Shown here piece after piece: positions 10,176 to 61,420 of a DNA stretch of 64,000 nucleotides (its first letter is position 1; every line of letters starts with the position of its first letter). The notes beneath the pieces were generated by a model. It was not told where the DNA came from. It saw only the letters and a list, made by a program, of their open reading frames with translations, and made no database searches. The position numbers and the translations under genes were made by a program. The DNA is from Protoeuglena noctilucae (Eukaryota), in NCBI GenBank assembly GCA_958009085.1, contig OY253678.1, positions 496,001-560,000 on the forward strand. The letters run 5' to 3'.

Positions 10176-13100
10176 CTACTTGTGGTGCGGGACGAGGAGG
10201 TTTGCCAGCCGGGGATCGCGCTTGAGCTTCTGATCCAGCTCAAAGAACTTCAGCAGCGCATCCTCATCGTGCTTCTTCTTCCGGTAATCCAAGATGTGAA
10301 GCTGCGGGCACGTCGGAGCAAAGCATGTCGTCCGCGGCCAGCTGCAGTGCGAACGCTCCCATCCGCAGTCGCTGAGAAGTCAAGCCTCCCACACTCCGCA
10401 CCTTGAACAGCGCCTGCTCCACCTCCATCTCGTGCTGCTCCTCGTCCGCCCGCTGCATCGAGTCCCGGTCTCGCTGGAACGTCGCCTGCTTTTTCTGCAG
10501 CGCCGCCGTCTCCTCCTCCAGCCTGCGCGGCGCCGACGCAGGTCCCTCAGCCACCTCGCCGGCGCGGCAGGCCTGAGCGAGGCCCGCCGACCCCGCCACA
10601 ACGCGTCGCATGCGCGGTGCCCCGCCGCAGCCCCTCACCTCCCGCGGATGATGGCCTCCCTCCGCAGCACCCGCTCCTTCAGGGCGTCTAGCGCCCGGCT
10701 GCGCACTTGCACCGCCTCCTGCTGCGACAGCGCCTTGCGGGGCTTGTAGTTGGGTGGCAGGTACGGCGCGAGGTAGTCGTGCTCCGTGGCCTCCTCGTCC
10801 TCTCCCTCCGCGTCCGACTCCTCCTGGTTCTCGCGGATGATGTCGTAGTACGGGACGTGCACGCCCCCGCTCTCCTCCTCCTCCCGCCGCACCATCATCT
10901 CCCGTATCTCCGCCTCCATGTCGCGCACAGCCGTCACCGCCTCCCGCTCCTCCTGCACCAGCTGCAGCGTCTCCTCCGCCAGCTGGGACTTCGACACGGG
11001 GCCCGCCGTCGGGTCCACCTGGCTGACCTCCGCGTCGCCCTTCCGGAAGATCTTCGAGGCACGGGTGATTTTACCCTCCCCGTAGTGGTAGTGCACCTGC
11101 GGGGGCGCGATAAGAGGCGACGTCAGTCTACGGCCACCACATATTCTCACTCACACCCTGGCGATCACAGCACGTTGCTCCTGCAAGCCCATCACTCCCG
11201 CCTCATCCCATGGGGTGCGGTGCAGCCAGTGCGACACGGCGGCCAGCAGCAGCAACATGCTGGCCAGTGGGATACTCCCATCCCAGAGCCCCTCCCTCGC
11301 CTCGATGCGGTCGTTCTTGGGATCGAGGCAGAAGCGCCTCTTGGCCACGTCCTGCCCCGCGGGCACGCTCTCGTCCCGCGAGAACTTCTGCGTGATCTTG
11401 ATGATCCCCTGGTGCGTCTCGGTGCGCATGTAGTCCTGCGCCGCCGTCCGCTCGGCCTCGCCCGCCTGCCGCGACACCATGTCCTCCGGAGACATATCCT
11501 TGTACCGCACCGACCGGTACTCCAGCCGGTCGTCGCGCCCACGGAACCACTCGGTCGTCTTGCGCCTCGGCAAGAAGGCCTGGGACACGACCCACTTGAG
11601 ATAGGTATACTCGGACTCGATGAACTCCTCCACGCGCTTCACCAGGCCGTCCTGCCGCGCCTCGGTCCAGTAGTGCGTCTCGCGGTACTTGCCGCGGATG
11701 CTGATGTGCGTCTTGAGCGCCGACGACGACCCCTCCGCGAAGTGCTCCACAACCTTCTCGCCCTTCTTGCCCCCCGGCTCCTCCGTCACGTACTCCCGGC
11801 GCTCCTTCAGCTTGTCCGCCCGGCGCTGGAAGAACTCCCACACCTCCGTCTTGGCCGTGCACTGCGGCGGGGGAGCAAAGGAGCGGTGGGCGGAGCAGCA
11901 AGTGCGGGCGTTGAGTGCAGCGGTCGGCGGGGTGACTGGGGGGCCGCCCTGGCACAGGGCCAGGCGGGGCCACAACTGCAGTACTCCGGGCTGACAGCGT
12001 GCACCACAGGCAACAGCCCACATGCAAGATAGAAGTCAGCTACTACTACTCCACATGGCGTCTATCACACAAGCGCAGGGCCACAGCATGGTATGGTTCA
12101 GCGCATGTCCTCGCCTGTACGTCGCTGAAGAAGGTGAGGCGCTCGACGCGTCCCTCGTAAGCCTTGGCGCACTCGCCAAAGTAGGCGAAGATCTCCGACT
12201 TGCACCGGTCATACATGACCACCTTGTGGCCGCGGGGGCACCGCGTGTCGAAGGCGTCGCGGGAGATGACCAGGCGCGGGACCCACGAGGGCGGCATGTC
12301 GATCACTTGGCCCTCCCGGTCCTTCAGCTGCTCCCCCGACACCACCGCCTCCATCCACAGCTCCGGGTTACGCACCGCAGCCGCGAGCACCCCCTCGCCG
12401 CCCCCCGCCTTCACCGCCGCCTCCACCGCCCCCAGCGCCACCGACCCCAGCCCCGGGGGCTGCGCCGCGAGGCCCACGTCGCTCGAGATGGCCTTCTGGA
12501 TCCGCTGCGCCAGCTCCTGCGCCCCCGGGTACATCTCCGGCTCGGCCAGGACGTCCTCGAACGGCGACAGGAGGAACTCCCACAGTTTCGGGTTGGACAG
12601 GTCCCACTGCACGTCGCGCGGGTGCGCCCTGCGACCAGAGCAGGGTGCATGGGTGGCGTCGCGGCAGGGGCGGGGCTGAGGGAAACGCCGCGTGTTTGGA
12701 AAACGCAACATCGCGTCAGAGACGCGAGGCACGGCTGTTTCTCAAGAACAGGATGGAAGCAGGGCAACGGCGCCATCGTCGCACGTGGCCGTTTGGCAGT
12801 GCCACTCGCCTGCTGTCCGAGTGGGGCTCTGGCATCTGCATGCACACCCAGAAGTTCTGGTGGTTCCAGACGAACTCGACGCCCTCGTAGGGGCTCGCCT
12901 CGGGGGCGAAGCACTCCCCCGTCGTGGGCTCGATGAAGAGGGGCGCTGTGACCCCGCGCTTCTTGGGCAGCAGCAGCACCCAGGCGTGCACGCGCCGCCC
13001 CTCGTGCGGGTCGCCCGCCTCCTCCTCCTCCTGCCCGAACTCCATCGCGAACTCCATCCGCCGCAGCTCGTCCTCTTTTGCCTTCCGCTGCTCGTCCTCC

Positions 13101-58473: not shown

Positions 58474-61420
58474 ATGCATCTCGCGTGCCCGCCCCCCCTC
58501 GCGGGGCTGGGGCTGAGGGCTGCGGGCTGTAGACCCGCCGCCTGCCCCGTCAGCGCCTTGCCAAGCGTCAGCTACAGGGAGGGATCCGCACCTGGATTCG
58601 ATGGGCCCCGGGCCGTTCCAACTCGGGGCCCTCGTAGCCTGCCCCGTCGCGGACGCTCGCGCGCGGCGCTCGGAAGGGGCGGAGACGACCTTCTGGAGTC
58701 AAAGGGGGACGGGACGACCGGGCGCGACGGCGCGTCCCCGGCCGACCGGGGACTCGACGCCCAAGCCTCGACCAGCAGGGAGCCGGATGCCGGCGAGGAG
58801 GGGTCCAGCATGGACAACCCGAACTCCAAGAGACCGGTGTGGTGGAGAATTGTCTACACGACCGTCGGGGCGCTCTTCATGGTGGCCAGGGGCGTCCGCA
58901 ACCTCGTGCCCCAGCCACTCGTGGCCATCGTCGGGAGGTTGCTCTCCATCCTTCGACCGGTGCTCCCCGTGCTCGTTTTCGGGGGCTTCTTCTTCATATC
59001 TAACGCCGGCAAGTCGCCCGGCCCCCGGTGAGTGCAGCTCCCTGGGACGGGGTGGCGTTCGCGAGTGATGGGTGTCGCTGCAGGCCCGGTCCGCGTTGCG
59101 CCAATTCCGTCTCCCACACGCTCCCTCATCTCCAGTCGACTTCGCTCCGCGCCCGCAGGGAGGTGATGTACAGCGACTTCATGCATCTCGTGCGGTCCGG
59201 CAACGTTTCTGCCGCTCTCTTCGAGAGCAACGGCAACCGAGTCTACTTCACGCTGAAGCCCCACTCATCCGTCATGCAGAAGGCAAGAGCTCCGCAGCGG
59301 GCACTGCTTCCCCCGTACCATGGCCGGACCCCGCACCCACTCGACGCTACCACCCCGCACCCACCCCCCCGCAGCTCGCCCAGTTTGAGGCGGAGGCGGA
59401 GAAGGCCGCGAAGGAGAAGCGCGGCGCCCGCCCGGACCGCGCCGAGAGCTTACGACGCGTGATGCAGGGCCCCGAGGCCACTCGCGCCGAGCCGGCCGCG
59501 CCGTCGCCGACCGCGGCCACTGACGCGGTCGTGTCGGTGCAGAGCAGCAAGCCCCGCGTGCAGCGCCAGTTCTACGCGCTGCGCGTGCCGGAGGGGGACA
59601 CGGACCTCGTCTCGGCCCTCCAGGCCGCCGACGTCCGCTTCGGCGCCGTCTCGCCCTCCTTCGGGGCCGCGGTCTCCAAGATCCTCCTCACCGTCCTCGC
59701 TCTGTGGGTGCCACTCCTCCCCATGTTCTTCATCTTCCAGCGCCAGTTCGGCGGGCGCAACGACAAGAGGTGAGGCGCACGGGGGTCTTCTTGGTGTTCC
59801 GGCGTTGCACTTGAATACGGGCTTTCGAGGCTCGCCTCCTCCTGCACGATTCGCACCAGGTTCCCGCCACTTGTGCCAGTCGGCTGGCGACTCGCCCCGC
59901 CGCTGCTGGCATGACGCCCCATTGTTGTTGGTGCTCGACAGGAAGGGCCAGGGCAAGGGCTCTCCCCAGAAGCCCCCCGTGACGTTCGCGGACGTGGCGG
60001 GCGTCAACCAGGCGAAGGAGGAGCTCATGGAGGCCGTCATGTGCCTGAGGGACGCCACGCGATACTCCAAGCTCAACGCGCAGATGCCGTCGGGGGTGCT
60101 GCTGGCGGGGCCCCCCGGCACGGGCAAGACGCTCTTGGCCAAGGCCGTGGCGGGCGAAGCAGGGACGCCGGTGAGATGGGGGCAGATGTCAGGACTGGTC
60201 GCTGCGCGTGCGTGTCGCTGCGACGGAGGCCCAGGGTTCACACCGGGCCAGGTTCACACCTGACGTCGCTGCAGTCACCTGAACCCCTGACACTCTCGCC
60301 ATCCTCTCCCTCTCAGTTCTTCTCCGCGAGCGCCTCTGAGTTCGTCGAGATGTATGTGGGGCGCGGCGCGGCTCGGGTGCGCGAGCTGTTCGCGGAGGCT
60401 CGCAAGGCGGCCCCCAGCGTGGTCTTCATCGACGAGTTGGACGCCGTCGGCGCCAAGCGCGGCATGGGGTTCAACGAGGAGCGGGACCAGACGCTCAACC
60501 AGCTGCTGACCGAGGTGACGGGCTGTTCGCGCTTGCCGCGTTCTTGCTTGGCGTGACACACCACCAGCTGTAGATTGTCACTGCCAGACGTCGAGCGGTG
60601 GGTGACCACCAGCAGTTGGCTCGAAAGAAAGCACTCGTCAGCAGGCTTTGCCGCTCAAAGCAGGAACAGGGCTGGCCGGCCCACGCTCGCACTCGACGAT
60701 GCTCACACCCTCCCTCACGCACTCGCCCTCTTGCTGCCTGCCCGCAGCTGGACGGTTTCGACGGCCGCCCCGGCGTCCTGGTCATCGCGGCCACCAACCG
60801 CCCCGAGACCTTGGACCCCGCGCTGCTCCGCCCCGGCCGCCTCACCCGGCGCGTCACGGTGCCGCTGCCCGACGAGGAGGGCCGGCGCGACATCCTCCGG
60901 GTGCACTTGCGGCGCGTGCCGCTGCAGGGCGTCATGCTCGAGGAGGCCGCGGAGACGCTGGCCCGCATCACGCCCAACTGCTCGGGGGCGGAGCTGGCCA
61001 ACGTGGTCAACGAGGGGGCTCTCATGGCGGGGCGGCGCGGGGCGGACGGCGTCGTGATGGCCGACCTGCTGGAGGGCGTGCAGGTGAGGGTGGCGCTGGC
61101 GGGCGGGCGAGGGGCGTGACAGGTTGCTGGGTGCCTGTTGGTGCCAGTCTTGGTGCAAGAGAGCAGCGTGAAACGGTCGTGTGCACCGTGGCAGAACGCC
61201 ATGTCGGACAACGTTGCTATGTCAAGATATCGAGACCTTTCCGAAGGATGCGTGCTAGTCTTGATATCACAACTCGCCTCCCTTGGCGCCCTCACAGCGG
61301 ACGCGCTTTGGGGTCAATGGCGGGAACAGGGGCGGATCCCTGCCGCAGTGGGCCACGTCGCTCATGCAGTCCGTGACTTCGAGCAACGCGCGCGCCGCCA
61401 AGCTGCGCAACGTCATGTGA
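58474..61420 (+). CDS. FtsH-like AAA+ protein lacking the M41 protease domain (FtsHi3-type)
   Basis: [56 protein letters not shown] and LRPGR. The CDS ends soon after the AAA lid, with no HExxH motif. Confidence 0.9.

Follow-up and report, generated by a model that had tools for sequence, protein, structure and literature searches.

U2-type introns that begin with GC and end with AG make up about 1% of introns in mammals and plants, where they keep a near-perfect consensus at the other donor positions. Dinoflagellates use GT, GC and GA donors, with a G after the acceptor. Far larger shares of GC-AG introns have been described in several GC-rich algae. In the accessible part of the survey by Iwata and Gotoh (2011, BMC Genomics 12:45; PMC3033335), they reach 39.6% in Aureococcus anophagefferens (69.5% GC) and 22.2% in Micromonas pusilla (65.9%), with 7.7% in Chlorella sp. 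and 1.3% overall, and the 5′ end of U1 is canonical in both Aureococcus and M. pusilla. In Emiliania huxleyi about 60% of donors are GC, as confirmed by RT-PCR (reverse transcription polymerase chain reaction), and gene prediction biased towards GT mis-modelled these introns, according to the sections available of Feldmesser et al. (2014, BMC Genomics 15:148; PMC4028052). For pelagophytes, the portion at hand of a recent preprint (10.1101/2024.10.30.620910) gives 14–17% for species rich in GC and 0.32% for a relative with lower GC. Our literature searches, made without the organism’s name, returned nothing specific on the GC-AG share of the organism considered here, and the available part of PMC6310983 held nothing on GC-rich algae. 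Here we examine the introns of a 64-kb stretch of Protoeuglena noctilucae DNA (contig OY253678.1, positions 496,001 to 560,000; hereafter “the window”, with coordinates counted from its first base), for which a preceding sequence-only reading had proposed GC donors far above the usual level of about 1%.

The observation of frequent GC-AG introns is confirmed: RNA splice joints, identical proteins and homologue alignments place GC donors in this window far above ~1%, at about 14 of ~106 introns (13%, exact 95% interval 7–21%, with the RNA-only intron 9787..9935 included). The G+C content of the window is 0.636–0.715 across 4-kb bins, and that of third codon positions (GC3) is 0.91 in coding sequence with RNA support. 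The locus resembles the algae of Iwata and Gotoh in its G+C content (64–70%), in keeping AG acceptors and in a GC-AG share, here that of the window, many times the usual 1.3%; two of their three algae are green, as this organism appears to be. It differs from them in being far more intron-rich and in having introns that are not repeated elements, and its share is based on one window whereas theirs come from whole annotations. Our models hold ~105 introns in 28 genes per 64 kb, with a median length of 131 nt and 69% G+C, and an all-against-all blastn comparison of the 105 introns gave one 36-nt pair only, so that introners or transposon-derived introns are not indicated. Emiliania is likewise a GC-rich (65%) marine alga with RNA-confirmed GC donors, AG acceptors and an effect attributed to GC content; however, it is a haptophyte and not a green alga, and GC is its majority donor (~60%) but a minority donor here (~13%). 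The pelagophyte share is of the same size and has been read in the same way, although these organisms are stramenopiles with fewer than one intron per gene, and their shares, in the portion of the preprint at hand, are predicted from annotation. The link to high GC that the sequence-only reading had considered possible agrees with all three surveys, as far as their accessible parts extend. As in the GC-AG class of mammals and plants, our introns have GC at +1/+2, an AG end and a strengthened donor, at a frequency about ten times higher. They share frequent GC donors with dinoflagellates but show no sign of GA donors, which occurred at none of the 15 RNA splice joints described below and which, offered as a decoy to our gene finder, were used three times, and once when GC was also allowed.

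The RNA evidence consists of marine metatranscriptome contigs aligned to positions 9700–29699, where runs X1, X2 and X3 belong to one study and X5 to a second. Most contigs were at least 99% alike to the window (19 of 22 in X1, 19 of 25 in X2, all 8 in X3 and 4 of 6 in X5). Parts of 20000–29999 were present in marine metatranscriptomes from three studies, and four DNA runs that share a coded species label contained all of that interval; these are possibly the source of the assembly and not independent support. Joint counts cover the 15 listed of 35 splice joints; these comprise 11 GT-AG and four GC-AG joints, each with exactly one canonical reading once the ambiguity of the cut position is taken into account. 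Four of the listed joints resolve only as GC-AG, which speaks against the use of nearby GT donors there. All four lie on the minus strand and each was found in X1, X2 and X3: 9787..9935 (cag/GCGAGC...GCAG, the slash marking the exon end; one contig in each run), 11097..11300 (gag/GCGAGG) and 11862..12114 (cag/GCGAGG) in DRC7, and 23495..23597 (aag/GCAAGC) in an unnamed gene at ~22776–24700. Forbidding the donor in our gene finder (leave-one-out loss, see below) cost 37.9 nats at 11300, 22.0 at 12114 and 20.0 at 23597. Two further GC-AG introns, on the plus strand, are seen in contigs of X5. Pieces of a single contig (28916–29123 and 29258–29482) give the GT-AG intron 28664..28917 together with the GC-AG intron 29127..29260 (cag/GCGAGG) of the gene for ribosomal protein uL13 (RPL13A). 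Another contig begins at 27867, and its 9 loose letters, together with 3 shared ones, match the terminal bases of the exon that precedes 27767, a 12-nt anchor that fits the GC-AG intron 27767..27869 (cag/GCGAGG, loss 14.4) in a gene for a TPM-domain protein. A GT-AG intron at 14734..14916 was likewise obtained from pieces of one X1 contig.

The intron 9787..9935 lies in a highly expressed transcript directly downstream of DRC7, and is probably the 5′ untranslated region (5′-UTR) intron or first intron of a small gene at ~8994–10000. The contig of this small gene (8994–10100, minus strand) has a depth of 147.7 in X1; the gene is poorly modelled by our gene finder, and its transcript begins no more than ~250 nt away from the stop codon of DRC7 (10176).

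Two transcript-derived proteins that are identical to the spliced window carry the same signal. P0003 (182 residues, encoded on a public contig of 1.1 kb) matches spliced uL13 with 100% identity and spans the 29127 junction. P0126 (540 residues, 100% identical) corresponds to seven exons of an FtsHi3-like AAA gene on the plus strand and contains the junction SSVMQK/LAQFEA, where the intron 59283..59374 (aag/GCAAGA) has a single reading with a terminal AG, namely GC..AG; the five other introns covered by this protein are GT-AG (59028..59158, 59770..59941, 60171..60316, 60515..60747 and 61084..61297). Taking the six junctions in RNA contigs and the two in identical proteins together, the GC introns are removed from the mRNA exactly between G/GC and AG/. 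The FtsHi3-like protein itself (58810–61420) has FtsH_ext, AAA and AAA-lid domains with an intact Walker A motif (GPPGTGKT), lacks an M41 peptidase domain and ends at 61420.

We regarded a site as verified if it was found in an RNA contig, in a transcript-derived identical protein or in an ungapped homologue alignment, and the verified GC-AG sites comprise six of the first kind, two of the second (29127 belonging to both) and four of the third. Three of those in alignments are in DRC7, which is encoded on the minus strand and whose model of 16 exons and 1594 residues shares 986 identical residues with P0121 and 765 with the Pedinophyceae protein named below, both alignments being free of gaps at all five GC junctions; five of its 15 introns are GC-AG. 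At 12629..12809 (cag/GCGAGT, loss 12.8), both flanks are conserved and ungapped against P0121 and P0123 (PEPHSDS/RAHP), and the intron is absent from the listed RNA joints. At 15515..15713 (aag/GCGAGC, loss 9.6), the alignment to the same two proteins is ungapped across FMWQK/RVTEGP, the Pfam profile PF24681 is continuous across the junction (positions 58–93, then 96–221), and a piece of an X1 contig stops at precisely 15514, where the proposed intron has its acceptor. The intron 13510..13673 (cag/GCAAGA, loss 9.6) is moderately verified, as its acceptor-side exon is conserved from the first residues (VVKYQ against VEKYQ) and its donor side falls within an unconserved acidic stretch. The two DRC7 introns with RNA joints are also ungapped in the alignments, 11097..11300 against both P0121 and P0123. 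The fourth site is 42262..42364 on the minus strand (cag/GCGAGT, loss 5.5) in the gene for ATG4 (peptidase C54), where the spliced sequence WLGPYQ/LCLALE...GGGQPVVF is free of indels against WLGPYxLCxxxE...GGGAPxL of 22 homologues. The exon upstream of this junction aligned to ATG4A residues 69–144, and the exon downstream gave chance-level matches only against PDB. As a separate observation in DRC7, one X3 contig enters the 3′ end of the predicted intron 12629..12809 by 20 nt (12629–12648) and then goes on for 255 letters that do not resemble the window, perhaps because unspliced RNA was fused to other sequence during assembly.

Three further GC-AG introns are candidates proposed ab initio: 18907..18987 (plus strand, cag/GCGAGG, loss 12.1) in a beta-helix protein gene, 20880..21117 (minus, tgg/GCGAGT, loss 10.8) in a SCAMP gene and 37114..37192 (minus, cag/GCGAGG, loss 16.2) in a Hikeshi-like gene. 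The RNA depth is ~0 across 18371–19037 and 20372–22372, which span the first two. The SCAMP exon upstream of the 21117 junction ends at position 151 of 172 of the Pfam SCAMP profile (E = 0.08), and the Pfam matches of the Hikeshi-like gene are confined to exons downstream of the 37192 junction; a PDB search with both Hikeshi exons flanking that junction found no match, and Pfam at E values up to 10 found nothing further for the Hikeshi, SCAMP, TPM and beta-helix exons. The sequence-only reading had named 17 donors, and all 17 coordinates carry G/GC[AG]AG on one strand within 2 nt; overall, 11 of these sites are now verified, three are ab initio only and three have no support. Among the nine it had considered best, seven stood (11300, 12809, 15713, 27767, 29127, 42364 and 59283), with 21117 and 37192 left as ab initio candidates. 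Of the four it had called probable, 23597 held, 18907 is ab initio only and 33201 and 33520 found no support, whereas three of the four it had regarded as ambiguous (9936, 12114 and 13674) proved to be real junctions by the above definition and 47590 did not. The sites 33201, 33520 and 47590 were used by no gene model, even at a lower gene penalty.

If the gene models were wrong or the motifs due to chance, with nearby GT donors actually used, GC donors could be an artefact. The donor motif is indeed common, with 110 occurrences of RGGCRAG on the two strands together (dinucleotide shuffles gave 73.7 ± 8.4), and in the form AGGC[AG]AG it shows no excess over a Markov expectation; an unfiltered gene finder over-calls such sites, and three sites of the sequence-only reading were left without support. 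Against this stand the RNA contigs, the transcript-derived proteins and the homologue alignments, together with the single canonical reading of each listed RNA joint, which refute the artefact for 11 sites (18907, 21117 and 37192 not among them). As an account of the whole, we consider it extremely unlikely.

To estimate the share of GC-AG introns over the whole window we used our own exon-chaining gene finder, which combines codon log-odds with donor and acceptor matrices blind to the donor dinucleotide and is self-trained from RNA-supported exons and introns. Run without restriction, it gave 115 introns, 31 of them with GC donors, and recovered 16 of the 19 RNA introns. In a filtered model, non-GT donors were required to match G/XX[AG]AG and introns were limited to at most 400 nt. 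With this filter GC was used at 16 of 190 sites with a gain of 200.7 nats, whereas 14 decoy dinucleotides were used 0–6 times each (GG 6, the others at most 3) with gains of 0–30 nats, or 0–3 times each when GC was also allowed, from 14–190 sites each. The leave-one-out loss on forbidding a donor had a median of 9.3 nats for GT donors, and amounted to 9.6–37.9 nats for twelve GC donors and 5.5 for the donor at 42364. The GC calls at 7387, 56346 and 51279..51633 were dropped, as their losses were 0.4, 0.5 and 3.9 nats and two of them require exons of 1–2 residues. The 7–14% that the sequence-only reading had arrived at by hand is right or slightly low in view of the 13% (7–21%) obtained here, and its total of ~125 introns is somewhat high compared with the 105 modelled.

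The same counts bear on the question of whether the genome-wide share is ordinary (1–3%), with the window or a few genes enriched by chance. Such a local cluster would be in keeping with the five of 14 robust GC introns that fall in one gene, DRC7 (5 of its 15 introns), and with the 64 kb examined; however, the other nine lie in nine different transcripts spread over 9.8–59.4 kb, and a true share of 2% would, by our own estimate, have only an extremely small chance of yielding 14 of 106. We therefore judge chance clustering very improbable.

The donors of the GC introns follow a stricter context than those of the GT introns. All 11 verified GC donors have A at −2, G at −1, a purine at +3, A at +4 and G at +5, and the context −1G/+3R/+4A/+5G, present in 11 of 11 verified GC donors, occurs in 13 of 26 verified GT donors (Fisher one-sided p = 0.003). 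The difference is plainest at +4, which is A in all 11 GC donors but A in 18, C in 6 and G in 2 of the 26 GT donors. In the model set, −1G, +4A and +5G are found together in 14 GC and 35 GT donors, and their combination is absent from 37 GT donors and from no GC donor. Such strictness is expected if the rest of the U1 pairing compensates, and the result supports the compensation suggested by the sequence-only reading. The GT donors of the model set are themselves shifted towards GC, with G at +3 in 67 of 72 and T at +6 in only 7 of 72. About a third of them (22 of 72) read GTGCGG, with C at +4, a donor type that never occurs with GC at +1/+2. U12-type introns are marked by an extended donor box after the first base. 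All 14 GC donors read GCGAG or GCAAG and none has a U12-type donor box; the GC introns are of the U2 type and belong to the compensated GC-AG class of the major spliceosome, not to the U12 type.

From the observed splicing and donor context we infer a cause in GC bias acting together with a normal U1. In all likelihood, these are ordinary U2-type introns with C at the second base, whose share of ~13% here results from GC bias plus U1 compensation and needs no changed spliceosome. G+C bias, whether by mutation, biased gene conversion or both, would drive the tolerant donor positions to G or C: A to G at +3, A to C at +4 in a third of GT donors, and T to G or C at +6. At +2, the change from T to C would be tolerated only in donors whose U1 duplex is otherwise intact, because the cost of a single mismatch would be small there. 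A high GC-AG share would then represent a mutation-selection balance in a GC-rich genome.

A different account, in line with the relaxed or modified recognition inferred in the sequence-only reading, would place the cause in an altered recognition of the 5′ splice site, through a changed U1 5′ end, a base modification, or contacts of U1C, Luc7 or U5/U6 in which C at +2 is tolerated, in which case GC donors would be recognised as well as GT donors. The size of the share speaks for it, as ~13% (and four of the 15 listed RNA joints) is far above the ~1% of most eukaryotes. Iwata and Gotoh, in the accessible part of their survey (PMC3033335), also call the origin of such introns “an enigma” and propose RNA modifications or proteins of the U1 small nuclear ribonucleoprotein (snRNP), and their data show that the share is not predicted by genomic GC alone. 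If +2C were freely accepted, the confinement of GC to the compensated context (11 of 11 verified donors, and none of the 37 model donors outside it) would be unexpected, and the same part of that survey gives a canonical U1 5′ end for both GC-rich algae in which it was examined. An Rfam search of the 64 kb found no family at gathering score, hence no gene for U1 small nuclear RNA (snRNA) in the window. Because GC occurs only in the compensated context, we favour mutation pressure plus compensation over a changed spliceosome and regard altered recognition as improbable.

Several points weigh against explaining the ~13% by GC bias and compensation. GC content alone is no predictor, as Micromonas RCC299, with 64.1% GC, has only 2.7% GC-AG introns in the part of the survey available (PMC3033335), and both the GC-bias cause and the normal U1 are drawn indirectly from a window that shows neither U1 nor spliceosomal proteins. 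The RNA evidence consists of assembled metatranscriptome contigs with 15 of 35 joints listed, and the four best-supported GC joints all come from runs of a single study. The unfiltered gene finder is unspecific, with the decoys CC, GG and CG giving 20–23 introns (9–11 with GC also allowed), and for this reason its 31 GC introns were rejected as an estimate of the share. The 13% rests on the filtered model, in which the unverified sites have the context because the filter demands it; the GC share among externally verified introns, 11 of 37, comes from a sample biased to the genes that carry the claims; and the share is that of one 64-kb window. Lastly, AGGC[AG]AG shows no excess (32 occurrences against 34.3 expected under a second-order Markov model), whereas AGGT[AG]AG occurs 34 times against 11.7 expected, and the motif alone is weak evidence for GC donors.

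The phenomenon is already published for other GC-rich algae, and what we describe is no new kind of splicing; an intron-rich green alga is added to the few GC-rich lineages in which GC-AG introns are numerous. There is a bolder version, to which we give little credence, in which the genome-wide GC-AG share would be among the highest in the green lineage (13–30%) and would depend not just on mutation pressure but on an adapted 5′ splice-site recognition that involves proteins of the U1 snRNP or modification of the snRNA. If it were true, this intron-rich organism without introner repeats would be a clean system for the question left open in the accessible text of Iwata and Gotoh, namely why some GC-rich genomes gain abundant GC-AG introns and others do not.

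For annotation, the consequences are immediate: gene finders restricted to GT would mis-model about one intron in eight here, and many genes with several exons would contain at least one such intron. In our own runs, a GT-only model lost ~200 nats and altered the affected genes. Public protein collections already contain read-through “proteins” of this locus. P0244 (183 residues, 100% identical; 42308–42856, minus strand) is a straight translation of unspliced DNA in the ATG4 gene, which passes through the GT intron 42586..42687 and enters the GC intron after ...WLGPYQ. P0245, from another organism (67% identical), departs from the conserved sequence right after ...WLGPYK, where the next residue is V (codon GTN); judged from the protein sequence alone, this would be consistent with a GT donor at the corresponding site of that relative. 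Both were rejected as splicing evidence, being read-through translations of unspliced DNA. The ATG4 gene (40358–43652, minus strand) was split into two by our gene finder: positions 7–111 of the Pfam profile Peptidase_C54 match at 42365–43285 and positions 156–274 at 40361–41340, and the exons for positions 112–155, with the introns between 41341 and 42090, are unmodelled.

Comparison with the DRC7 genes of relatives gave little on the history of individual donors. Three metagenome loci retrieved with P0121 and P0123 hold more distant DRC7 relatives, at 0.46–0.61 G+C and with no strictly orthologous intron. In one of them (L002, 279–3043, a DRC7 relative of 46% GC), there is no intron at the 12809 position, and an intron with a GTACGT donor, not strictly orthologous, lies three codons from the 12114 position, which could reflect intron sliding or an independent gain. 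This comparison neither supports nor contradicts a drift from T to C. A search of metagenome contigs with one DRC7 exon found none, and a search of a protein atlas with a DRC7 exon gave no usable match.

Pfam searches with the exon translations named much of the gene content of the window. They identified DRC7, with LRR, Kelch, CEP76-peptidase-like, MORN and C-terminal domains, as well as SCAMP, a TPM-domain protein, the ribosomal proteins uL13 and uS5, a tubulin-tyrosine-ligase-like protein, Hikeshi, ATG4, an ankyrin protein, a kinase with cNMP-binding domains, V-ATPase subunit d and an FtsH-like AAA protein. Among named proteins, the best match of DRC7 comes from Pedinophyceae sp. YPF-701 (48% identity, 765 of 1594 residues), and the best named relatives of the FtsHi3-like protein (“inactive FtsHi3”) are from Chlorella, Nannochloris and Auxenochlorella (61–63% identity). 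For uL13, identity is at most 62% to any named protein (~60% to many groups) and 72% to the best unnamed one; by these values and that for DRC7, the organism is none of the algae surveyed by Iwata and Gotoh that are named above. Judging from the FtsHi3 and DRC7 relatives, it appears to be a flagellate-capable green alga, and it has no close named relative in the protein collections searched.

Two smaller observations concern the region covered by the RNA contigs. A run of 200 N at 24848–25047 marks an assembly gap that separates two divergently placed genes, and close to it one base is left out at 24755 in the RNA contigs of X1 and X2. On the plus strand, a GT-AG intron at 25837–25971, with RNA in all four runs, lies upstream of a heme-oxygenase-like gene whose predicted start is at 25929; either this is a 5′-UTR intron or the true start codon lies further upstream.

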